Source: Raja brachyura
Taxonomy: Eukaryota
Length of the DNA: 64,000 nucleotides
Reading direction: 5' to 3'
Assembly (NCBI GenBank): GCA_963514005.1
Contig: OY740787.1
Span: 34,410,001 to 34,474,000, forward strand
Each line of letters begins with the position of its first letter. Within the stretch, counting starts at the first letter, position 1. The notes below the pieces were generated by a model. It searched no databases and was not told the origin of the DNA. It saw only the letters and a list, made by a program, of their open reading frames with translations. The position numbers and the translations under genes were made by a program. This document shows positions 1-35,790 of the stretch, one piece after another.

Positions 1-1404
1 ATGCTCATATAGCCACAGAGCATGTAAATAGCTTTGGCCCACATGGTCCACAGAGACCATTAAGCATCCATTTGTACAAATCCTATTTTTTTGAATGCAT
101 CCCACATTCTCATCAACACATCCCCAGAGTCTAACCCTCCTCTTACACACTGGGGGCAACTAACTGGGCCAATTAATCTACAAACTAACATATTTTTTGA
201 ATGTTGGAGGTAACCAGAGCACATAGTAGAAACATGCTATGCCACAGTGTCACTCAAAACATTTGTCCTGAAACATTAATTATTTCCCTTTCCACAGATG
301 CTGCCTGACCTGCTGAATGTTTCCAGCATGTATTGTTTTATTCCAGATTTCTAGAGTTTTTGTTACTTTCAATATGCCAGGCCTCCTGACTTAATTTTCT
401 CTCCAAACCAATCACCATATTTATTCCAGTCTACAGAGTCCTGAAAATCCCTCTTTGGCTCTTGATAAATGCCTGATAGCATGATACATCAGTTCAGCCC
501 CAATAACTCATCACATAAGCCACCTAACTAATCCTACATCCAACCCCAGGCACCCAACACAGTGTTTAACCAAATACTGGAGTAACTCAGCGGGACAGGC
601 AGCATCTCTGGAAAGAAGGGATGGGTGACATTTCAAGTCGAGACCCTACTTGAGAGATGCTGCTAGCATTTAGTGTCCACCTTCGATTTAAACCAGCATC
701 TGCAGTTCTATCCTACTCAGTGTTTCACCATCCAATTTCCTCATCGCACCATCTTCAGTCCCCAATATCTTGTGTTCTACTGTGAAAAATGAAGAATTAT
801 TCACCACTCAAGTTCCAGATGCTCTTGAAAATATATGTCATTGAGCAAATTACAATATATTTGTGGAATTTTAACTTGTTTTGTAGCTTGTGAAAGTAGT
901 TGACTACACTAAGATATTGTATTGCAGATTTCAACAATAAACATATGTCAAAGCTGTCCAAGGTCAACCGCAAAATGTTAATAAAAATAATGGCATTAAT
1001 GTAGTGCCTCATATCCTGTGAAGCAGTTTGAAAACATAGTCAATGGATTATTCTTGATCCATAACCTTACTTGCAACTCACAATTTCCTCCACACATTCA
1101 ATTTCTGTTCTCCGGTTGGACAGGAGCCTTGCTACTGTTGCAGTGGCTAGGTTTCAAGTGGCAGGTCCTGACTCCTCACCCCTGGGTAACTCTGATGATC
1201 TTTTGGTAGCCTGTGCTGTCCAGTGGGTCTTTTCAACTTTTTGTTAATATCTGTGATTGTCACTGATAGTTATATCAATTAAAATATAAATTATCTATAG
1301 AAATATGGACCAAATGCTGGCAAATGGAGCTAGCCCAGAACGCCAACTTGGTCAGCATGGACAAGTTTGGCCCAAGTACCTACTTCCATGCTGTATAATT
1401 TTAG

Positions 1405-1710
1405 AGGTGACACGGTGGTGTAGCAATAGACTAGCTGTCTAACAGCAGCAGAGACACGGTTCAATCCTGACTACGGGTGCTTGTCTGTATGGAGTTAGTA
1501 CCCGTAACCTACGTGGTTTTGCTCCGAGATCTTTGGTTTCCTCCCACACTCCAAAGACGTAGAGGTTTGTAAGTTAGTTGGCTTGGTAGAAATGTAAAAA
1601 TGTCTCTAGTGTGTGTAGGATAGTGTAAGTGTGTGGGGATCACTGGTCGGTGAGGACTCGGTGGGCCGAATGGCCCGTTTCCGCACTGTATCTCTAAACT
1701 AAACTCTAAA
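1405..1710 (+). mobile_element. tRNA-derived SINE (HE1-like)
   Basis: tRNA-like head with A box (ggtggtgtagc) and B box (ggttcaatcc), conserved body (gtttcctcccacactccaaagacgt) and (CTAAA)n tail. Related copies occur throughout the window. Confidence 0.75.
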
Positions 1711-2349
1711 CTAGGACTCTTATTCATTAAAAAATAAAAAATAAATGAAAAACATTTTTTTTTTAATATATTTAACTGATATAAGTTAAAAGTATTTGTG
1801 TTATGTAACATACTGAAACTACTTAATTCGTTTGATATTTCAATCCAGCCATCAAGCTTAAGGCTGGGAGTCAAAATGAGCTCTACCCCTGAACTGAGAC
1901 AAGCGGCAGAGCAGGATATGCCAGCAATTGACCAATGCAGATTCCTGCCTTTTGCATGATACTGTGGAGACGCAGAAGGCAGGAATGTAGTGACCAGTGA
2001 AGGGGACCTTGCCAAACCACTGGCAAAAACGAAGTACATTTCAACTCACAGTAGGTAAAAATGTCAACAAAGGTCTTCAGAAAATGTAGTGAGGCATATG
2101 AACAGCTAATCTGATTTTTTTTTCCTGTTATGAACACCTCATTTTTTTGACTAATGCCATAGGAACATGTGCATTAACCTTCAAAGTTAGTAAGGTTTTC
2201 ATGTTAATGCTAATCTGAAAAGTGACACCCCTTCAGTACTGCACTGAATTACTGTATCTGCTGATATTAAATGCACAAGGCAATAAGGGTTTCAGCCCTT
2301 AATTTAATTTTAGAAAATTCAGAGGTGAAGGTGCTATCACTGACCTTGG

Positions 2350-3421
2350 AAAGTGGTGAAATCATTGGACAAAGTCAGCATGGATTTATGAAAGGTAAAT
2401 TATGTCTGGCGAATCGTATTGAATTTTTCGAGGATGTAACTAGTAGAGTGTATAAGGGAGAACCAGTGGATGTGTTATATCTGGACTTTCAGAAGGCTTT
2501 CGACACGGTCCCACATAAGAGAGTAGTATGCAAACTTAAAGCACATGGTATTGGGGGTTCAGTATTGATGTGGATAGAGAACTGGCTGGCAGACAGGAAG
2601 CAAAGAGTAGGAGTAAACGGGTCCTTTTCAGAATGGCAGGCAGTGACTAGTGGGGTACCGCAAGGCTCTGTGGTGGGACCCCAGCTATTTACAATATATA
2701 TTAATGATCTGGCAAGGGAATTGAATGCAACATCTCCAAATTTGCGGATGACACTAAGCTGGGGGGCAGTGTTAGCTGTAAGGAGGATGCTAGGAGGATG
2801 CAAGGCGACTTGGATAGGTTGAGTGAGTGGGCAAATGCATGGCAGATGCAGTATAATATGGATAAATGTGAGGTTATCCACTTTGGTGGCAAAAACAGGA
2901 AAGTGAATGATGGACGATTAGGAAAAGGGGAGATGCAACGAGACCTGGGTGTTATGGTACACCAGTCATTGAAAGTAGGCATGCAGGTGCAGCAGGCAGT
3001 GAAGAAAGCGAATGGTATGTTAGTATTCATAGCAAAAGGATTTGAGTATAGGAGCAGGGAAGTTCTACTGCAGTTCTACAGGGTCTTTGTGAGACCACAC
3101 CTGGAGTATTGCGTACAGTTTTGGTCTCCTAATCTGAGGAAAGACATTCTTGCCATAGAGGGAGTACGGAGAAGGTACACCAGACTGATTCCTGGGATGG
3201 CAGGACTTTCATATGAAGAAGGACTGGATAGACTCGGCTTATACTCGCTAGAATTTAGAAGATTGAGGGGGGATATCATGGAAACTTACAAAATTCTTAA
3301 GGGGTTAGACAGGCAAAATACAGGAAGATTGTTCCCGATGTTGGGGAAGTCCAGAACAAGGGGTCACAGTTTATGGATAAAGGGGAAGTCTTTTAGGACA
3401 GAGAGTGGTGAATCTGTGGAA
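2350..3421 (+). mobile_element. CR1 LINE, 5'-truncated RT fragment (left part, split by the DIRS)
   Basis: ORFs 2271-2822 and 2798-3442 give QHGF, YLDFQKAFD, SGVPQGSV, FADD (frameshifted) and RPHLEYCVQFWSP, all CR1 ORF2 motifs. Confidence 0.93.
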
Positions 3422-3447
3422 TTTCATTTCGGAGTCACGTGAGTGAC

Positions 3448-3483
3448 TTCGTGAAGAGCCCGCCGGCGCGCATGCTCGACATA
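3448..3483. repeat. DIRS left inverted terminal repeat
   Basis: ttcgtgaagagcccgccggcgcgcatgctcgacata is the exact reverse complement of 8634-8669. Confidence 0.95.
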
Positions 3484-3557
3484 TCGTCGTAACGCGTTGC
3501 TGCGACGGCTGGCGGTGGAGCGCGCTCCTCGCCAGCCCTTCATAAGGGGCCACGGAG

Positions 3558-5357
3558 GTGAGTATTCCACCTTTAGTTGGTGGTCCTTGTTGTCTGATTA
3601 TGTCTTGCAGCAAGGACATGGATGGGAGTTCGAAGGGCCGGAGGACGTCAGGACGAGTTCGCCGGTCAACAGTTCCGGGGCCTTTACCATCGGCAGTACC
3701 TGCAGCGCGGGCCGGGACTCAGGCGGAGATGTGGGTAAGCCCTGTGTTCACAGGTCCAGATCCGCCAGCACACCACAGCTCGGAGGAGTTCGGTGAGGAG
3801 GAGTGTGGTGTGCCGCCAGAGCAGGGGGACCCTGCCATGGCAGTCAGGTTGTCAGCGGGCTCGCTGGCGACCTCGAGCAGGGCGCGTGCCGTTGCACGGC
3901 CTGTTCCACTCAGCCCTCCGAGAAGGGGGAGGGGAGGAGCCCAGAAGCCTAACCCTGTTAGGGCTAAGGCATTGCCTGTCGCGGAGGAGCGGTCAGGTTC
4001 CAGGGCGAGACCCGGGGCGGCTGTGAGGTCCAGCCGGCACACCCCGACTCTCGACGCCGGGACGGGTCGGTTGAGTCGGGTCTCGTCGCGGTCGCCGAGC
4101 CCCCCATGGATGGGTGGGCGGCACCATGCGTCGGCAACGTCCACGATGTGGGCAGCCGGCAAGCCTGCGCGGGCCCCAGGCAGCCATGCTTCGGCTGGTG
4201 CCGACACCTCGCCGCATGTGCCCTTAGTGGCAGCGGCTTCAGCTCTCGCTAAACGGAGGCGATTGAACACGCCCGCGCAGGAATCGCGCAGTTTCGCCTC
4301 GGCGGCTGTTAGCGACAACTACCGGCACCGGCAGGGCCTCGACGAGGTGCGGGCCGATGACAGGAGCCCGGTTTTCTTTTCAGAGCCGGAGGACTCCGAC
4401 CACCTGAGTGTTCAGGGTGAAGGGCGTATTGACCGTATGGAGCGGCTGCTGGAGCTCCTGCTTCAACGTCAACAACAGCAGGGCAGCAACAGGCACAGGG
4501 CGTCTTCACCAACATCTACTATCAGCCTGGAGCAGCACGAGGAGGAGGTTCTGGTGGATCCCGTACCACCTCCGGTGGAGGTGCCAGCGGAGGAACTTTT
4601 GGATGTGGCGACCAAATTCGCGGCCCCACATACGGCTGGTCTTCCTCTCAATTCAAAGCTGGCAGCCACAGTGGACTTTCTTAATAATCAGGTGCTGCAG
4701 GAAGAAGTCCTCATCCAGGCTATGAGCCGTCACAAGGCTCCATCAAACTGCAACTCCCTCAACGTGCCTGTGGTCAATACGCCAATATGGGGCAACATCA
4801 GTGCGGCTATCCGTCAACAAGAGCTACAATTGCAGCGGATCCTGAAACTCCTCACGGCCGGTATTACCGCCTTTGCGCGGTCGGTGGACGAGGACGAGCT
4901 GAATTTGGACCAGGAAGATGCTCTGGCCTTATTGTGCGCGACCCAGCACGAAATCAACGGGTTTCGCAAAAACAGCATCCGCCCAGCACTCAACCCGAAG
5001 TTTGCAGGATTGTGCAAACCACCGCCGCCGCCGCCGCCCCGTCAGCTCTTTGGTGAGGACCTCTCGAAGAGAGTCAAAGAGCTTGACGAACAAGCCAAAA
5101 CGGTGGGGATCATGCGCTCTAAGAGTGCCCCCACACCGTCCGGCTCAAAAGCTCCATACATTCGCTCACGAGGGTCGGCCAGTGCCTCGACGAGGACTCA
5201 CCCTCTAGCTCCACAACGACAACAACACCAGAACCAGCACCAAGGGTCTTTTTTAGGACAGGGTCGGCAGAGACCTTTTTGGAAATCGAAGACGCCGCGC
5301 CCTCAAGCCAACCCAGCACCTCCACGGCCACCCACACGTGTCAAGGACCGCCGGTAA
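3558..5357 (+). CDS. gag: DIRS ORF1, gag-like protein
   Basis: 599-codon open frame in the first ORF position, with a Ser/Arg/Pro-rich N-terminus and a conserved-looking C-terminal part (PSNC..L.VP.VN..IW, LFGEDL). First ATG is at 3600 and an in-frame ACG lies at 3552. Confidence 0.85.
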   Translation: MSIPPLVGGPCCLIMSCSKDMDGSSKGRRTSGRVRRSTVPGPLPSAVPAARAGTQAEMWVSPVFTGPDPPAHHSSEEFGEEECGVPPEQGDPAMAVRLSAGSLATSSRARAVARPVPLSPPRRGRGGAQKPNPVRAKALPVAEERSGSRARPGAAVRSSRHTPTLDAGTGRLSRVSSRSPSPPWMGGRHHASATSTMWAAGKPARAPGSHASAGADTSPHVPLVAAASALAKRRRLNTPAQESRSFASAAVSDNYRHRQGLDEVRADDRSPVFFSEPEDSDHLSVQGEGRIDRMERLLELLLQRQQQQGSNRHRASSPTSTISLEQHEEEVLVDPVPPPVEVPAEELLDVATKFAAPHTAGLPLNSKLAATVDFLNNQVLQEEVLIQAMSRHKAPSNCNSLNVPVVNTPIWGNISAAIRQQELQLQRILKLLTAGITAFARSVDEDELNLDQEDALALLCATQHEINGFRKNSIRPALNPKFAGLCKPPPPPPPRQLFGEDLSKRVKELDEQAKTVGIMRSKSAPTPSGSKAPYIRSRGSASASTRTHPLAPQRQQHQNQHQGSFLGQGRQRPFWKSKTPRPQANPAPPRPPTRVKDRR

Positions 5358-7288
5358 CCACGGAGGTGAGGGGGTCTGGTTCTCTCTTTTCTCTCTGTTT
5401 AACTTCCCATGTTGGTGGTCGTTTACGGTTGTTTTTGGATGCATGGGGTAATTTTACTGGTGATGAGTATGTGTTGCGGAATATTCAGGGGCATAAAATT
5501 GAGTTTATTAATGGCGACATTCCTCCATCCCAGCACATGCCTGGTCGTACATTCAAATTGTCTGCTGCAGAACAGGCAGCAGGTTACAAGGAAATTTTAA
5601 GTTTGGAACAGAAGGGTGTGATTGAGAAAACAGTACATGAGCCAATTGAATTTGTTTCGAACATATTTACTAGACCTAAGAAGGATGGAGGCTGTCGTGT
5701 CATTATTGATCTAACCCGTTTGAATACGTTTGTAACATATACTCATTTTAAAATGGATACGTTTGAAACAGCCAAATCATTGATTTCTCATGGCTGCTTT
5801 ATGGCATGCATTGATTTGAGGGATGCATATTATTCAGTATCCATCCAGAAAGATGATAGAAGGTTTTTGAAATTTATCTGGATGGGGCAACTTTGGCAGT
5901 ATAAGGCTTTGCCTAATGGGCTTACTACAGCCCCTAGATTGTTCACTAAATTGGTGAAGCCAATCATGGCTTATTTGAGACAACGACATCATATAGTTAT
6001 GGCCTATTTAGATGATGTCTTTATTGTGGGCCACACCCTGCAATTGGCTGAACAGGGTGTTGCAGCTGCTGTCAATATATTTCAACAATTAGGATTCATT
6101 GTCCATCCAGAGAAATCAAAGTTCTGCCCTGCCCAGGTAATTAATTACCTAGGGTTCACGGTGAACTCAATGAGCATGAGGATAACTATACCAATTAACA
6201 AAATTGAGGAAGTCACTAAGGTGTGCAGAGATTTAATTGGCACCAATATACCATCGATTCGGCATACAGCCACAGTAATTGGCAAGTTAGTGGCTTTGTT
6301 TCCGGCAGCACGATATGGACCTTTGCATTATCAGAATTTGCAAAGAGCTAAAATTACTGCGTTAAAATGGAACGCTGGTCATTACGATCGATCTATGCAG
6401 CTGCCGTCCGAAGCGATAACTGAGTTGCAATGGTGGGTGTGTCACATTAGCAACTCATTTAAGCCTGTCAGGGAGGCTAATCCGGTGGTATATTTACAGA
6501 CTGATGCAAGCTCCAATGGCTGGGGAGCTACTGATAATTGCTCTAGTTGTGGGGGTAGATGGGACACCCTTGAGGCATCGATGTTGTTGACTCAAGGGAT
6601 TAACTATTTGGAGTTGCTGGCAGCATTCCACGGACTTCGTGCATATTGTTCCAAGCTTGTTGGAGCACACGTCCGTCTCCAAATAGACAACACCACAGCT
6701 GTGGCATATTTAAACCATATGGGTGGTACCAGGTCAGTTTCGTGTGACAAATTGGCTAACTCAATTTGGCTCTGGTGTATTCAAAGAGACATTTGGATTT
6801 CAGCTACCTATTTGCCAGGTGAGCTTAATACTGTGGCGGACACCAGGTCACGCAAATTTAATGACAACATTGAATGGATGTTGCATCCTGAGATTTTTGC
6901 TAAAGTCACAGCCAAATTTGGTAAACCTGACATTGACCTTTTTGCGTCACGGTTGAACCATCAGGTACCAGCCTACGTTTCATGGGAACCAGATCCTGGG
7001 GCAATAGCGCTAGATGCATTCTCGCTGGACTGGGGGAATTGGGTTTTCTATGCCTTCCCTCCGTTTTGCCTCATCAGTCGGGTATTGCGAAAGATTCAGG
7101 CAGATGCTGCCAAGGGCATCCTTATTATACCCGACTGGCCCACACAGCCTTGGTATCCGGTGGTCTTTGACATGCTCAACGAACCTTGGGTCCTTTTGAA
7201 GGGTTGCCCACAATTGGTTACTCACCCTGTGTCAGGGGAGCCACATCCCTGCCATGGCTATTTAAATTTGTTGGCTTGCAGGTTCTGA
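5279..7288 (+). CDS. pol: DIRS ORF2: reverse transcriptase, RNase H and DAM-like methyltransferase domain
   Basis: VGGRL..F...W; RT motifs CIDLRDAYY, LPNGLTTAP and YLDD (6005); RNase H TDAS..GWGA, INYLELLA, DNTTAVAY, N.VAD..SR; C-terminal DIDLFAS and YAFPPF MTase-like motifs. The true start is uncertain (ACG 5360, first ATG 5537). Confidence 0.95.
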   Translation: MEIEDAAPSSQPSTSTATHTCQGPPVTTEVRGSGSLFSLCLTSHVGGRLRLFLDAWGNFTGDEYVLRNIQGHKIEFINGDIPPSQHMPGRTFKLSAAEQAAGYKEILSLEQKGVIEKTVHEPIEFVSNIFTRPKKDGGCRVIIDLTRLNTFVTYTHFKMDTFETAKSLISHGCFMACIDLRDAYYSVSIQKDDRRFLKFIWMGQLWQYKALPNGLTTAPRLFTKLVKPIMAYLRQRHHIVMAYLDDVFIVGHTLQLAEQGVAAAVNIFQQLGFIVHPEKSKFCPAQVINYLGFTVNSMSMRITIPINKIEEVTKVCRDLIGTNIPSIRHTATVIGKLVALFPAARYGPLHYQNLQRAKITALKWNAGHYDRSMQLPSEAITELQWWVCHISNSFKPVREANPVVYLQTDASSNGWGATDNCSSCGGRWDTLEASMLLTQGINYLELLAAFHGLRAYCSKLVGAHVRLQIDNTTAVAYLNHMGGTRSVSCDKLANSIWLWCIQRDIWISATYLPGELNTVADTRSRKFNDNIEWMLHPEIFAKVTAKFGKPDIDLFASRLNHQVPAYVSWEPDPGAIALDAFSLDWGNWVFYAFPPFCLISRVLRKIQADAAKGILIIPDWPTQPWYPVVFDMLNEPWVLLKGCPQLVTHPVSGEPHPCHGYLNLLACRF

Positions 7289-8265
7289 ACAGGCCGTTAG
7301 TCCAATACGGCCTCTCGGCTCGGACCATGGATACCATCGGGGCGTCGTGTCGAGAGTCCACAAGGCGAAGATACCCCTCGCATATTAAGAAGTGGGAAGC
7401 CTACTGCAGCCGCTCTCGCATCACGTACGATGACGTGACAATAACCGACGTCCTGGAATTCCTCGCGGGGTTGCACCATGATGAACACTTAAGTTACAGT
7501 GCCATCAACAGCGCCAGAAGTGCGCTATCATTCTACCTCAAGATTGGGGTAGGATCCAACAGGCTAGTGTCCAGACTCATGCGGGGTATATTCAATATGA
7601 ATCCGCCTACACCACGCTATAATATCACCTGGGATGTCAGGGACGTATTAACCCTGCTCAGGACGTGGTCTCCCATGGAAGGGCTCCAACTGGACCAACT
7701 CACCATGAAACTGGTGATGTTACTAGCGCTGACTTCAGCTCAGAGGGTACAGACACTACACAAACTGCGTGTCGACAGAATGACATCTACCCCTACAGAA
7801 GTAGTCTTTTTCGTTGACGAGCTACTAAAGCAGCATAGACCTGGGTGCACAGGGCTGCAGCTGAAGTTCCCGGCATACCCCGCAGATGCTAGGCTATGTT
7901 TAGCCTCACATATCCGCCACTATGTCAAGGTGACGGCACGCATCAGAGGAATGGAGAGATACCTGCTTGTCACTCATAAGAGACCTCATCATCGAGTGAC
8001 AGTCCAGACGATATCCAGGTGGCTTCGAGTCGTCTTGGGTAAGTCAGGTATCGACACTAATGTGTTCAAGTCTCATTCCACCAGGGCTGCATCGACGTCA
8101 GCGGCGAGGGTCATGGAGGTGCCCATGGACCAAATTCTCGCCACAGCAGGATGGGCGAATGAAGCTGTGTTCCAGCGTTTTTATAACAAGCCTGTTGCTG
8201 CTCCTCTACAGTTCGCAGAAGCCGTGCTGAATGCAGGTCAAGAACGTGGAGATGTCCCCGCATGA
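7186..8265 (+). CDS. DIRS ORF3: tyrosine recombinase
   Basis: Catalytic residues in SAQR, HSTR, AGW and FQRFY; N-terminal YSAINSARSALS and PRY..TWDV..VL are typical of DIRS YRs. Overlaps the ORF2 end. Kozak ATG at 7327. Confidence 0.95.
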   Translation: MGPFEGLPTIGYSPCVRGATSLPWLFKFVGLQVLNRPLVQYGLSARTMDTIGASCRESTRRRYPSHIKKWEAYCSRSRITYDDVTITDVLEFLAGLHHDEHLSYSAINSARSALSFYLKIGVGSNRLVSRLMRGIFNMNPPTPRYNITWDVRDVLTLLRTWSPMEGLQLDQLTMKLVMLLALTSAQRVQTLHKLRVDRMTSTPTEVVFFVDELLKQHRPGCTGLQLKFPAYPADARLCLASHIRHYVKVTARIRGMERYLLVTHKRPHHRVTVQTISRWLRVVLGKSGIDTNVFKSHSTRAASTSAARVMEVPMDQILATAGWANEAVFQRFYNKPVAAPLQFAEAVLNAGQERGDVPA

Positions 8266-8407
8266 GGGGTTTTTGATTTGTTATTAATAAATATGCTTTT
8301 GTTTTGCAGTATGAGCTATTGAGCCAGTTTGTTCCTCCCATCCATCCCTGGTAGTGGTGTGTCAGCATGGACGTGGTCCAGGGCGTGTAATCACAGAAGC
8401 TTTGAAG

Positions 8408-8520
8408 TCTTCACGAAGTCACTCACGTGACTCCGAAATGAAATAGTAAGATTGAACGAGAACTTACCAGTTCGAAGGTTGATCTTTATTTCATGAGGAG
8501 TCGAAGTGAGGGATTTCGTG
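8408..8520. repeat. DIRS internal complementary region (ICR)
   Basis: 8408-8443 is the reverse complement of 3422-3457, and 8444-8520 is the reverse complement of 8664-8740. No mismatches seen. Confidence 0.95.
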
Positions 8521-8633
8521 CCCTCCTCGCCCAACCCTCAATCACCTTCATCTGGTAATCTTAGTCAATTCAATCATACTATGCAAAGTCATTTCTATTG
8601 TTGGTTCTGTGATTCCACGCCGCTACTTTGAAG

Positions 8634-8740
8634 TATGTCGAGCATGCGCGCCGGCGGGCTCTTCACGAAATCCCTCACTTCGACTCCTCATGAAATAAAG
8701 ATCAACCTTCGAACTGGTAAGTTCTCGTTCAATCTTACTA
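8634..8740. repeat. DIRS right ITR plus right extension
   Basis: Complementary to the left ITR and to the right half of the ICR. Confidence 0.95.
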
Positions 8741-8957
8741 TTCTCTGCCACAGAAGGTAGTTGAGGCCAGTCCATTGGCTATATTTAAGAGAGAATTAGA
8801 TGTAGCCCTTGTGGCTAATGGGATCAGGGGGTATGGAGAGAAGGCAGGTACAGGATACTGAGTTGAATGATCAGCTATGATCATCTTGAATGGCGGTGCA
8901 GGCTCGAAGGGCCGAATGGCCTACTCCTGCACCTATATTATATGTTTCTATGTTTCT
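8741..8957 (+). mobile_element. CR1 LINE 3' end (right part)
   Basis: Continues the CR1 reading (NSLPQKVVEA), then the 3' UTR and a tatgtttc tail. Confidence 0.92.
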
Positions 8958-11404: not shown

Positions 11405-11739
11405 AGGTTAACAGCATCTCTTTTTCTTTCTATGCTAATTCTGGCTTTCTATCTCAATACTCAGCATGATAATCTGGTGCTGCTTAACTTTGCTAAATAT
11501 CTCCTAACCCTTGTCCCTGTCTCCTTATTACAGATCCATTTGTGGCTGTGTTGCAGCTGAAAGAGAGGAGCCATTTGCATTGTGTTAAACTGAAGATAGA
11601 CACAAAATGCTTTAGTACCTCAACGGGTCAGGCAGCATCTAGCTGAAAAGGAATAGGCAACATTTTGGTGTGGAACCCTCTGCAATGTGTTAAATGTTTG
11701 GTGATATGTTTGATCGTCTTAATGTGTATGGTGATGTAT

Positions 11740-11868
11740 GTGTAGGACTGCAAATGCTGGTTGAAATCGAAGGTAAACACAAAATGCTGGAGTAACTCGG
11801 CGGGGTAGACAGCATCTCTGGAGAGAAGGAATGGGTGATGTTTCGGGTCGAGACCCTTCTTCAGACTT
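11740..11868 (-). mobile_element. Penelope-derived short insert with hammerhead motif
   Basis: Reverse complement reads gtctgaagaagggtctcgacccgaaacatcac...ccagcatttgcag. Confidence 0.75.
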
Positions 11869-12005
11869 ATGTATGGATTTAGGTGGTGTATGAGTGCTGC
11901 CTACACAGATGCCTCCACACAGAGGAAGAGACACGGTTTGGTTGCTCAAAAAAATGGAAGCAACAGGAAGTGTAGCTGATTTTCATACCACCAGTGTCCA
12001 ATTCC

Positions 12006-12215
12006 TGAAGATAGACACAAAATGCTGGATTAACTCAGCGGGCCGGCAGCATCTCTGGAGTGAAGGAATAGGGAACGTTTCGGGTCGAGACCCTTCTTCA
12101 ATCTTGACCCGAAATGTCACCCATTCCTTCTCCCTAGAAATGTTGCCTGTTCCACTAAGTCACTTCAGCATTTTGTGTCTTCAGTTTAAACCAGCATCTG
12201 CAGTTCCTTCCTACA
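12006..12215. mobile_element. Penelope-derived short insert, inverted pair with 14-bp TSD
   Basis: An inverted copy followed by a forward copy, flanked by cagtgtccaattcc (11992-12005 and 12216-12229). Confidence 0.85.
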
Positions 12216-13225
12216 CAGTGTCCAATTCCAATCTGAGAATTATGCTGTAGCAAACATGATCTGGTCTAAGCTTAAATTCAACTCTTGAATGTTGATAAAA
12301 TTGTTAGATTGATAGTAGATTGAATAAATCATAGGTATTTATGACAATTATAGATTTTATCTGACTACATTTCATTGGGAACATGATTCCATTAGAATGT
12401 TAATTTAAGAACACATTTGATTGTATATTGATTTTCTTTACTTAACTTTAGTTTTGTTGATGTTTCAGAATATGATTTTCACATATAAATACTGCTTTTT
12501 CAATAATTCAGTTTATTGAATAAAGAGCAAGGAAGCATTGTCCTGTTGCTGCACCATCAGTTGACATTCCTATTGAAAAAAAGCTGTTGTTACCACTGAA
12601 CCGAGCATCTATGTATCTGATAATCTGAAAGGCTAATCTTTACACAGACTGGAGCAAGTATTACCATATTCTTATCTCCTTATTCTCTCCCTTCACATGT
12701 GATTACTTCTTGTAACATGATCTTTTCCAATTTATCTTGGATATTGCACAGTGATAGCCTATAGCACTGGAATTCAGCACCAGCTTATTTGAGAAGTGAT
12801 GAGATGTGATGAGGAGATATTTTAAAGCAATAGCTGATAACTGGAATGAACTCCAATCTTAACTTTCAAAATAGAATTGGATAAAAAAATGAAAAGGAAA
12901 TACTTCAAGGCCATGTGTAAAGACAGAACTAAGATTAAAATGAAAAGCTCATTGAGATGGTACTGGCTTGATGGACTGATTGGTCATCTTTCGTCCTGTA
13001 TCACCCTACAACTTAAATGCAAGTGTGAGTAATAAATAAAAATAAAAATAATCAACATCTCTTCACAATCATTAGGACATGTAGCAGAAAACATGTTGAT
13101 GTAGAAATTGATAATGGAAGCTATTTAGATATGGGGGCAGGGGTACAGCACTAGATTCAATCGTCCCATAAAATAGCATGGTGATCAGACGGTATGACTG
13201 GCCCAACCCATTTAAAATAGATGTG

Positions 13226-32806: not shown

Positions 32807-35790
32807 ATGGCTTCTGCTTGTCGTAAACCTGACATCCTGATCTTTGATGCAGACATCGTTCACCGCTGGAGCGTTTTCAGATGTGACTTTGAGCACAACG
32901 TTACCATCGCTCACCCTGCAGTTGCCCCTGCGGTCAAAGCCTCTCTCCTGCTCAACTTGGCCGGTCTCGAAGCTCTGGAATGATTGGAGTCGTTCATCTA
33001 CGGGGTCAACGAGAACGCTTAGGACCCGGTATGTCTACTTTCAAAGTTTACTGGAGTTGTGTGACATCCCTAGTAACTGCATCCTGGAGCGTTTCAAGCT
33101 TTTCAGCCACCGCCAAAACCCTGGGGAATCGGTCGACAATTTCATCGCCGCGTTGCGGCACCTTGCTCGCCGCTGCAGCCTGGATGCTTTAACCCCTGAA
33201 ACGTTAACACAAGACATTTTGGTCTATGGCCTCCAGGATGAGAAGCTGCGATCTGAGCTCCTTCGCAAGCCTGATCTGACTTTTAACGAGGCATTGCTTG
33301 CCTCTCGCCTGGCAAAGGCCGTCTCCTCCACCATGTCACCGCGGCCAGTGTCATGAGGTCCACGTGGCCAGTTTCACCGGCCGCCAGTACTCTGCTCCAC
33401 AGCGACAGAGGGTAAGCCCTGCGCCCAGGTCCAGACCCCGTCAATGCTGCCCGAATTGCAAGTTTGCTTCGCATTGTTTTAATGTTTGTCCTGCGCTGGG
33501 CAAGACTTGTAATTTCTGCCACAAGCAAAACCATTTCTCGGCGGCGTGTTGTTCTCGTGGGAAGCCTGCACAGCCACAGCAGAAGCCCTCTAACTACCTG
33601 AAACGTGCTGATACGGCGTCTGGTTCCCATCACCAGCAAGACAAACTCCCCGTCTGATTCGAGCTCTTCCCAGAGCGAGCTGAGTGTGTTTCCACTGTGA
33701 AATGTACTTGCATTGATAACGGACCCGACCGTGCGAGTCACTGTGAATGGCACCACCTTCTCTGCTAAAGTCGACACGGGGGCTGCTGCCAACGTTATGT
33801 CAACAAGCTTGTTCAAGAAGATAAGAAATAATGAGCTTGTTACCACTGACCGCTCTGTTTTGCGTGCCTATGGGGGAGACGTGCTTGTTCCTGTGGGGAA
33901 GGCCACTCTCCACTGCAAGGTACTGAAGGCCTCTCGACCCCTCTCTTTCTTTCTGCTAGACAGTAAATGTGATCTGACCAAGACCTCGGATTGGTGAACT
34001 TCCACCGTGACATTCGCTTAGTGTAGTCACCCCTGGACCCGCTGGCCGAATACCCAGACCGTTTCGACGCCAAGCTGGGAAAGCTTCCCTGCAGCTACAA
34101 AATCGCCCTCAATCCAGATATCGAACCCGTCATCCGCCCACCGCACCGGGTGTCCTTCGCGATGAAAGACAAACTGGTGTCTACACTTCGTGAAATGGTG
34201 ACCATGGGCATCCTGAAGGAGGTGAGTGAGCCCACCCGGTGGGTCTCTACCATGGTCGTTGCTGCAAAGAAGGATAAGAGTGAACTATAAATCTGTATCA
34301 ACCCAAAGGATCTGAACTTTGCTATCAAGCGCCCGCATTATCCCATACGAACCGTTGAAGATGTTGCTGCACAAGTCGGTCCAGCCACTGTGTTTTCGGT
34401 TCTCGACGCTAAGAGCTCGTTCTGGCAGATACCACTTGATGAATGGTCTTCATACCTGACAACGTTCAGCACACCCTTTGGCATGTTTTGTTTTCTCCGC
34501 ATGCCGTTCGGGATCAACTCTGCCAGTGAGGTGTTCCAAAGGACAATGGAACAACTGTTTGCCGGGCTCCCATGTGCCATCATTGTCGACGACATCCTAG
34601 TCTATGGGAAGGATGTCGCCGAGCACGACTATAACCTCCGCCAGGTCCTGGAACGAGCTCGGGAAGTCAACCTGAAGCTTAACCCAAAAAAATGCCGGTT
34701 TTGTGTCCCTGAGGTCACCTACGTGGGACACGTCTTCACAGCATCGGGGCTGAAGCCCAACCCGCAGAAGACGGCCGCTATATCCGAGATGCCTGCGCCT
34801 GCTGACGTGCCGGGCCTCCAGCGTTTCCTGGGCATTGTCAAATACCTGGGAAAGTTCATCCCTGACCTAAGCGAGCTGAGCGCACCTCTGAGAGACCTGG
34901 TAAAAAAGGACACTGCCTGGGCCTGGTTCCCACAACACCAGAAGACTTTTGACATTCTCAAATCCAGGTTAGTCAGCACCCCAACGTTGAAGTATTTCGA
35001 CCTCCAGTGCCCCATCGTTCTCACATGCGATGCGTCCAAGTTTGGCCTCGGGGCCCCCTGCTTGCAGCTCCACAACGGAGTACAACTGCCCGTGTCTGGC
35101 AACTGACATTTTCAAGTGGCGAAGAAAGCATTTTCTAGTGCTTGTCGACTCTTACTCCAGCTGGTTTGAGGTTGATCAGCTTCACTCTCTTTCTTCATCT
35201 GTCATAGAAAAGCTGCGCCGCCACTTCGCTACTTTTGGGTCCCCGGCCAGCCTGCAGTCGGACAACGGCAGTCAGTTCACCATTGCTGAGTTCCGTGCTT
35301 TTGCTGATTGCTAGAATTTCCGTCACTACACTAGCAGCCCAGAGTACCCGCAAAGCAACGGCCTGGCTCATCGCGCGGTCCGCAGTGCTAAAGGATTGCT
35401 GGAACGTTGTCGCTTGTCCCGCTCCAACATTTACCTAGCCCTCCTGAACCTCCGCAACATCTCCCGCGACCATACCCTGGGTTCCCCAGCTCAGCGCCTC
35501 ATGTCCCGTGTTACTCAGCCTCCGATCCCGGTAACACAGCAGTCGCTTGCTCCCACCGTCCTTAAACCTGCCACGGTCCGGAAGTTCATCGCCCACAAAC
35601 ACCGTATCCAGAAGCACTCCCATGACAAGTCCTGCCGTGTCCTCCGTCCTCTCTTTCCTAGCCAGGTCGTCCGCATGCGCTCGCCATTGTTGTCGGTGCT
35701 GCTGGTTCCCCTCGTTCATACCTGGTCAATCACGATGGTATGATCAACCGGAGATCTCGTCAACACCTCCGGCTTGTGAACGAGCCTCAT
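32807..35790 (+). pseudogene. Gypsy gag-pol pseudogene
   Basis: Gag (MASACRKP..., RQNPGESVDNF, CPALGKTCNFCHKQNHFSAAC), protease (VDTGA), RT (LDAKSSFWQIPL, IVDDILV), RH start (CDAS..GLGA) and integrase core (DSYS, SDNG.QF, PQSNGLA). Multiple stops and frameshifts. Confidence 0.92.

Follow-up and report, generated by a model that had tools for sequence, protein, structure and literature searches.

How does a retrotransposon make its polymerase and its recombinase when neither gene offers a usable start codon? This situation is frequent for the pol and recombinase open reading frames (ORFs) of DIRS1-like elements, which are widespread in animals, and it is met again in a full-length element of this type within a 64,000-nucleotide stretch of DNA from Raja brachyura (contig OY740787.1, positions 34,410,001 to 34,474,000; referred to as the window, in whose numbering all positions are given). 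A 13-nucleotide word, CCACGGAGGTGAG, stands here at the head of both ORF1 (3550-3562) and ORF2 (5358-5370) and has no further exact match in the window. The original prediction regarded this word as a duplicated expression signal, either an ACG initiation codon combined with termination-reinitiation for pol or a splice signal. Based on comparison with related elements we propose that the 13-mer corresponds to an exon end plus a 5′ splice donor, not to a start signal, and that the element is expressed by frameshifting plus splicing; we assign a probability of about 0.72 to this reading. The features concerned are:

3421 to 8742, plus strand: DIRS1-like retrotransposon, full-length, with three uninterrupted ORFs and ATT at both ends
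3600 to 5357, plus strand: ORF1, gag-like, frame open from 3546
5123 to 7288, plus strand: ORF2, pol, with reverse transcriptase, RNase H region and Dam-like methyltransferase
7282 to 8265, plus strand: ORF3, tyrosine recombinase, 327 codons counted from the predicted acceptor, frame open from 7171
3550 to 3562, plus strand: site 1 of the 13-mer, donor-like GAG/GTGAGT (cut between 3557 and 3558), with an ACG at 3552
5358 to 5370, plus strand: site 2 of the 13-mer, putative phase-0 splice donor GAG/GTGAGG (cut between 5365 and 5366), 8 nucleotides past the ORF1 stop
5411 to 5420, plus strand: second shared word, GTTGGTGGTC, in the V-G-G-R codons of pol

The basic description given earlier was borne out by the sequence. 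Both ACGs are in frame with the following ORF (3552 with ORF1, 5360 with ORF2), lie in strong context (purine at −3, G at +4) and shortly follow a TAA (3543, and the ORF1 stop at 5355-5357), and ORF2 has no in-frame ATG before 5537, which is located 3′ of the VGGRL codons. Frame, context and the preceding TAA all speak for a scenario in which termination-reinitiation at ACG 5360 starts pol and, once the RNA is spliced, the recombinase as well, with ORF1 starting at ACG 3552; we nevertheless regard this as highly improbable in view of the evidence given below. Three features had been missed: two in-frame ATGs of ORF1, one at 3600 and one, in strong context, at 3618; an ORF2 frame already open from 5123, so that it overlaps ORF1 at its end, in the −1 frame; and the second shared word, a 10-mer, at 3576 and 5411.

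The comparison set consisted of 79 loci and the window, which form 46 families at 85% nucleotide identity, and was extended by protein homologues and by contigs of six of the seven public runs listed (X1, X2 and X4-X7), whose depth is not equivalent to copy number. Donor and slip sites were scored in 36 of the 46 families, the other ten having no anchor or too little sequence upstream. When the 112 nucleotides before the GGRL codons were scanned for the donor consensus regardless of phase, the top-scoring match lay in ORF2 phase 0 in 29 of the 36 families, with a tie including phase 0 in four and phase 1 in three, compared with a phase distribution of 307/256/241 (38% phase 0) in control windows inside pol. 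A donor score of at least 5 of 7 was reached by 33/36 families versus 79/530 control windows. In all 34 families whose phase-0 donor reaches a score of 4 or more, it is located 2-53 nucleotides past the ORF1 stop; for two families in this stop-to-donor analysis tied donors were picked by hand. The fold at site 2 is not unusual (z −0.7), and neither donor of the window is harder to open than its shuffles. Hairpins hiding the donor were rejected as a general rule, 20 of 34 families lying above their shuffles with a mean z of 0.26.

It had been suggested to check across related families whether ACG is fixed or ATG the consensus, and neither applies. Between stop and donor an in-frame ATG is present in two of the 34 families and a near-cognate codon in nine (three in strong context), ACG is found only in the element described here, and in L068 and L079 the 2-nucleotide gap is too short for any codon. 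The ACG-equivalent codon is ACA or CAA in closer invertebrate relatives. Initiation at ACG by termination-reinitiation is thus disfavoured by the lack of any conserved start between stop and donor. On the evidence of these comparisons the conserved portion of the 13-mer is AG/GTRAG rather than ACG, and ACG 5360 is most likely just a threonine codon. A family consensus ATG at 5360 had been named as the finding which would make this copy a defective one; in two close copies, however, the called start is GTG 5366, so that this copy does not look privately defective and ATG at 5360 appears not to be the norm of its family. Of the proposals made earlier, the splice signal is supported for site 2, as a conserved phase-0 donor, and is plausible for site 1.

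Just inside donor 2, a long pyrimidine tract extends over 5378-5408 and has CAT, not CAG, at its end; pairing of this tract with the purine-rich donor is conceivable, as is a role as a U-rich splicing enhancer. An acceptor between 5410 and 5411 behind this tract was discarded, as the 98% and 95% copies likewise read His-Val.

Entry into pol is presumably provided within the overlap of ORF1 and ORF2 by the following features:

5249 to 5255, plus strand: slippery heptamer T_TTT_TTA, in ORF1 phase, with a predicted −1 shift to the ORF2 frame
5255 to 5365, plus strand: predicted transframe linker, 37 codons in the ORF2 frame, with T-T-E at the donor

Because the −1 slippery heptamer gives entry, ORF2 would need no start codon. 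When 270 nucleotides were tested in each of the 36 families, TTTTTTA was detected in 23, in 22 of them in ORF1 phase and with ORF2 open from the heptamer to GGRL; pol bodies contain five in 63,476 nucleotides. The heptamer position is occupied by F-L in all four skate-type ORF1 proteins aligned. The word TTTTTTAG was also considered as an acceptor and ruled out, since the following G is absent in 6 of the 22 families. Besides this mode of entry, ACG-dependent reinitiation is weakened by an ACG-to-ORF1 frame broken in sister contigs (see below) and by the lack of UGGGA, the core of the termination upstream ribosome-binding site (TURBS) according to the available parts of PMC3542737 and PMC5972666: none is present on the plus strand between 3628 and 6559 and, consequently, none 40-90 nucleotides before the stop.

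The partner of donor 2 is expected at the transition from pol to the recombinase:

7262 to 7282, plus strand: predicted splice acceptor TTGCAG/G (cut between 7281 and 7282), phase 0 in the recombinase frame, within the L-A-C-R codons of pol
5366 to 7281, plus strand: predicted intron of 1916 nucleotides

The donor and acceptor of this predicted GT-AG intron fit the consensus, are in phase and are conserved across families. Recombinase homology starts at or near 7282, directly behind TTGCAG and 15 codons before the first ATG of ORF3 (7327, codon 16). In other families, the recombinase frame is open ca. 215 nucleotides further upstream, which points to the pyrimidine-rich FPPF codons. Among 43 families with FPPF, Ser is the next residue in 31 and is encoded by AGY in 28 of these (background 456/1893); this AGY supplies a phase-0 AG, from which the recombinase frame is open in 25 of the 28. 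Ten families carry FPPF-Cys instead, seven of which, including this element, show AGR where the C-terminal C-R is encoded, with the frame closed upstream; six of the seven constitute one clade in a quick tree, the seventh being too short to include. Judged from the sites compared (L002-L079; window 7055-7070 for FPPF and 7276-7282 for C-R), the acceptor appears to have moved by ca. 213-216 nucleotides between clades while staying in phase, and thereby appears to have shortened the recombinase N-terminus by ca. 71 residues in the clade of this element. Such a relocation of about 215 nucleotides with the phase kept serves as a natural control for the model.

Related joints are found in annotated gene models. 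In four RefSeq echinoderm models, XP_072032829.1 and XP_072043497.1 from Amphiura and XP_011683648.1 and XP_030847864.1 from Strongylocentrotus, a pol-frame linker runs into the recombinase and the joint coincides with the donor-equivalent residue, and isoform X2 of the XP_030847864.1 locus (XP_030847865.1) has the M-L-Q start of the unspliced form. Between F-F-R and the donor residue, the Amphiura linker can be aligned to the L048 segment in the pol frame (43%, E 4e-5). A weak alignment (E 0.03) pairs the urchin linker with the sequence preceding pol in P0019, with the same end residue; between the S. purpuratus linker and that of this element no likeness was detectable. A search of viral contigs with a degenerate junction pattern gave no match, and no GT..AG joint occurs among the joints listed (15 of 23 in each of two contig comparisons, with no run recorded as RNA), which has no bearing on splicing.

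What the sequence shows directly is the reading frames, the heptamer and the sites resembling a donor and an acceptor, together with how these sites are phased and conserved. Consistent with them we propose the following scenario for the expression of the element. Ribosomes would start ORF1 at an ordinary ATG, and a fraction of them would slip by −1 at T_TTT_TTA into the pol frame. Splicing from 5365/5366 to 7281/7282 would exchange pol for the recombinase in the same frame. Unspliced RNA combined with the slip would then yield Gag-linker-Pol and spliced RNA, from which 5366-7281 is removed, Gag-linker-recombinase, the 37-codon linker being predicted to be common to both, while plain Gag (579 residues) would be produced from either RNA. 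We consider slipping and splicing themselves, including the transframe product, as likely. If this holds true, a single −1 slip feeds pol or, after splicing, the recombinase, which answers how both are made; the recombinase would be packaged as a Gag fusion, and two exact junctions are predicted.

Several points weigh against this scenario. At the slip site, in-phase TTTTTTA is absent in 14 of the 36 families in the 270 nucleotides tested (in-phase variants in two, out of phase in one, none in eleven), and no stimulator is predicted behind the heptamer of this copy (z −0.23 and +1.29, pseudoknots being outside the model); a stimulator z below −1.5 was obtained in 9 of the 22 families. At the acceptor, an AG at the exact 7282-equivalent position is found in only 8 of 38 families, a crude acceptor score near the recombinase start was not separable from controls, and three of the ten FPPF-Cys families lack the C-R AG. 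The FPPF acceptor was noticed after the weak first acceptor test and is hence post hoc, and the C-R clade counts as one relocation, not as seven observations, so that p values computed over the families overstate their independence. The RefSeq joints are gene-model predictions, and the Gag-fused ones among these models cross the gag/pol frame change via a joint of their own. What is specific to this copy is a family-limited duplicate of the donor flank, a doubling for which the scenario does not account. Finally, the nearest sister family, P0003 (59-60% identical), has its called start at the ACG position and reads M-E-V-G-G-S-G-S versus T-E-V-R-G-S-G-S in this element.

The latter finding favours a functional ACG, as do a few distant pol calls with Met just before the donor residue, although the start evidence from the 150 representatives is indirect and biased by the gene caller. 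Near-cognate codons are, moreover, tolerated in calicivirus reinitiation as described in the available part of PMC5972666, and no majority change of the ACG appears for the sisters in the 40 variant entries listed per table (with 498 and 816 more), by which fixation is not shown. The Met of P0003, on the other hand, is a gene-caller start, which may be ATG, GTG or TTG, ACG and ATG are separated by one CpG decay step, and the slippery site is kept in this element while ORF1 of P0003 likewise reads F-L. With P0003 beginning M-E-V at the ACG position a minor ACG start is possible, but the ACG-initiation idea as such is probably wrong.

The preferred frameshift-plus-splice reading has its weakest step at site 1, which is part of a predicted structure in the leader:

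3545 to 3588, plus strand: predicted leader hairpin, −22.3 kcal/mol, z −3.0

Site 1 forms the 5′ arm of this hairpin and a copy of the 10-mer (3576-3585) is contained in its 3′ arm. According to the model, the exon end is present a second time, in this family only, as site 1 within the leader hairpin, where its probable role is that of a leader donor or of a binding site for U1. The frame between its ACG and the ORF1 ATGs is not kept in all sister contigs. Frame-breaking indels are found there at 3593-3606, between ACG 3552 and the ORF1 ATGs: one nucleotide at 3594 is missing from the sole covering X4 contig (ca. 98% identical) and, as a minority variant, in X2 and X6, and both X1 contigs have losses of non-triplet length. 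The ACG-to-ORF1 frame is kept in other copies (X5; P0256). The likely start of ORF1 is ATG 3618 (579 residues), whose position matches the called start in an alignment with three related ORF1s, or ATG 3600 (585 residues).

The sister copies with frame-breaking indels read GTAAG at site 1, and the 13-mer is not uniform in the family. Position 3560 is an A in many sister contigs, accounting for all covering depth in X1 and X4 and for ca. 60% in X2, 73% in X6 and 23% in X5; this exchange, G3560A, disrupts the 13-mer, preserves the donor and is also silent for Val. These data touch on a scenario with two routes, in which frameshifting and splicing proceed as proposed and donor 1 is additionally spliced to 7282; translation from ACG 3552 would then yield a recombinase free of Gag but with an identical T-E-V-L junction. 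ACG-GAG (3552-3557) is indeed in phase with the recombinase acceptor, the sister indels would fall into the intron and be harmless, the donor survives G3560A, and site 1 is otherwise without a good acceptor in range, the best local one giving merely a 53-nucleotide intron. However, site 1 is predicted to be base-paired, a leader donor before the first ATG of ORF1 is present in only some of the few relatives with a placeable 5′ end and is not general among them, and no such junction occurs among the joints listed, from contigs of which none is recorded as RNA. In addition, the donor flank is repeated upstream (at least 11 nucleotides) in none of 28 relatives. A duplicated donor flank is thereby ruled out as a general DIRS trait, and the doubling is, as far as these relatives tell, family-specific. 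We rate the second route as unlikely. If real, it would mean that an exon-end module was copied into the leader, with two donors sharing one acceptor (site 2 for a Gag-tethered recombinase via the −1 slip, site 1 for a short RNA encoding the free one), and that frameshifting, alternative splicing and non-AUG initiation together provide packaged and free forms of the recombinase.

A more serious possibility, although still a doubtful one, is that site 2 is a real donor whereas site 1 is functionless, either as an old short copy or by chance likeness of a leader hairpin to a donor. The earlier assertion that a chance pairing is unlikely is upheld by block shuffles of the element, where a 13-mer direct repeat at these two places occurred in 0/1000 and a 13-mer plus a downstream 10-mer in 4/1000, with the caveat that the places were picked after the fact. 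Some 13-mer repeat anywhere was, on the contrary, obtained in 178/1000 shuffles, and the donor consensus fixes 7 of the 13 bases; if both sites are donors six free bases remain, for which p is ca. 4.5e-4. At site 2 the 10-mer is constrained by coding for V-G-G-R, and at site 1 by base pairing within the hairpin. The identity of the two sites is lost at 3560 in many sisters, which agrees with a relic, but the frequent change at this position is the one preserving the donor. A functionless site 1 is compatible with the proposed role of site 2.

Around site 1, the leader contains three consecutive predicted hairpins (3507-3537, 3545-3588 and 3593-3624; z −3.2 for 3500-3630), which are possible packaging or translation-control signals. 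Further upstream, the left termini of distant families (window 3433-3480; L003, L004, L044, L060, L070 and L073) share a GCGCATGC(GC)-like word, and some of them also contain TCACGTGA; the two words resemble NRF1 and E-box promoter motifs.

The inferred partial splicing of genomic RNA to reach a 3′ gene is shared with retroviruses, which splice part of their genomic RNA into subgenomic forms for this purpose. The slip site has a close counterpart in human immunodeficiency virus type 1 (HIV-1), whose gag-pol shift site U_UUU_UUA is identical in heptamer and phase and is likewise positioned in the gag/pol overlap (PMC5009743; this and the other publications named here are cited from the portions available). 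In contrast to HIV-1, the donor follows gag rather than preceding it, so that the product of the 3′ gene would be fused to Gag via the same slip, and for this copy the predictions give no stable stimulator hairpin.

Termination-reinitiation in caliciviruses, influenza B, LINE-1 and SART1 (PMC3542737, PMC5972666) shares with this element a candidate start 2 nucleotides past the upstream stop, but here the UGGGA core and a start codon conserved in relatives are lacking, and ORF2 is already open via the overlap with the slippery site. ACG initiation of the Sendai virus C′ protein (PMC3542737) resembles site 1 in that an in-frame ACG upstream of the AUG produces an N-terminal extension, which would amount to 16-22 residues on ORF1; the difference is that the ACG-to-ATG frame is not kept in all sister copies. 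For the tyrosine recombinase of Ngaro a programmed frameshift has been proposed (Poulter and Butler 2015 as quoted in PMC13003380). As in Ngaro, the recombinase lies in the −1 frame relative to pol and overlaps its end, by 118 nucleotides in this case. Unlike there, the overlap contains an acceptor-like site relocating between clades, which argues for splicing rather than a second frameshift, and the termini are inverted, not split direct repeats.

Other DIRS1-like elements (PMC3266345, PMC9210276, PMC5633606, PMC7192593) have in common with this one the three overlapping ORFs (gag; reverse transcriptase, RNase H and methyltransferase; tyrosine recombinase), inverted termini, complementary-region halves overlapping on a 3-bp junction, and ATT ends. 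In the portions available these reports do not address pol and recombinase expression, for which a −1 slip and a pol-removing intron are suggested here, and the second donor-flank copy in the leader distinguishes the present family. Neither gag-pol frameshifting nor pol-removing splicing in DIRS1-like elements was found described in the available portions of PMC7192593, 10.64898/2026.05.21.726589, PMC9341512, PMC4157794, PMC13003380, PMC3266345, PMC9210276, PMC3783388, PMC5633606, PMC5941688 and PMC5009743, with Poulter and Goodwin 2005, Poulter and Butler 2015, Repbase reports and supplements being outside the scope of this survey.

The remaining parts of the element are its ends and the internal complementary region (ICR):

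3421 to 3483, plus strand: left terminus, inverted repeat of 8634-8696, 89% over 64 nucleotides
8408 to 8520, plus strand: ICR, with halves complementary to 3421-3457 and 8664-8742
8634 to 8742, plus strand: right terminus with extension

The ICR halves overlap on AAT (8442-8444), the 3-bp circular junction. With these inverted termini and the ICR, which match features in the available text of PMC3266345, 3421-8742 is a full DIRS1-like element. Its insertion target looks like a CR1-type long interspersed nuclear element, judged in part from a weak RVT_1 match. An upstream ORF of six codons (3472-3492) starts within the left terminus in weak context.

Skates are the source of the closest named homologues of the element. 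ORF1 gave no match in a Pfam search and is homologous to ORF1 of related elements; it is ca. 90-180 residues longer than its skate-type relatives (403-486 residues), mainly in the N-terminal half, and its 5′ region (window 3552-4300) looks lineage-specific. ORF2 matches RVT_1 with E 5.6e-20 and Dam (PF05869) weakly, with E 0.0026 and below cut-off, while its homologues have PF05869/PF12237. ORF3 contains Phage_int_SAM_4 above cut-off and Phage_integrase with E 1.6e-5, and has 405 homologues at E of at most 1e-15. An Rfam search gave no match. Among the compared sequences, L001 from a viral contig collection has a DIRS-like pol with a phase-0 donor on a long branch, and neither a recombinase match nor a slippery TTTTTTA, and positions 1-6876 of the metagenome contig L007/L008 contain two tail-to-tail copies of one family, possibly as an assembly effect. 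Elsewhere in the window, 34108-35106 holds a second, decayed reverse transcriptase/RNase H fragment of long terminal repeat type (RVT_1 3.1e-23, RT_RNaseH_2 1.9e-10), and a short interspersed repeat is present in several copies and both orientations at 554-723 and 11587-12221.

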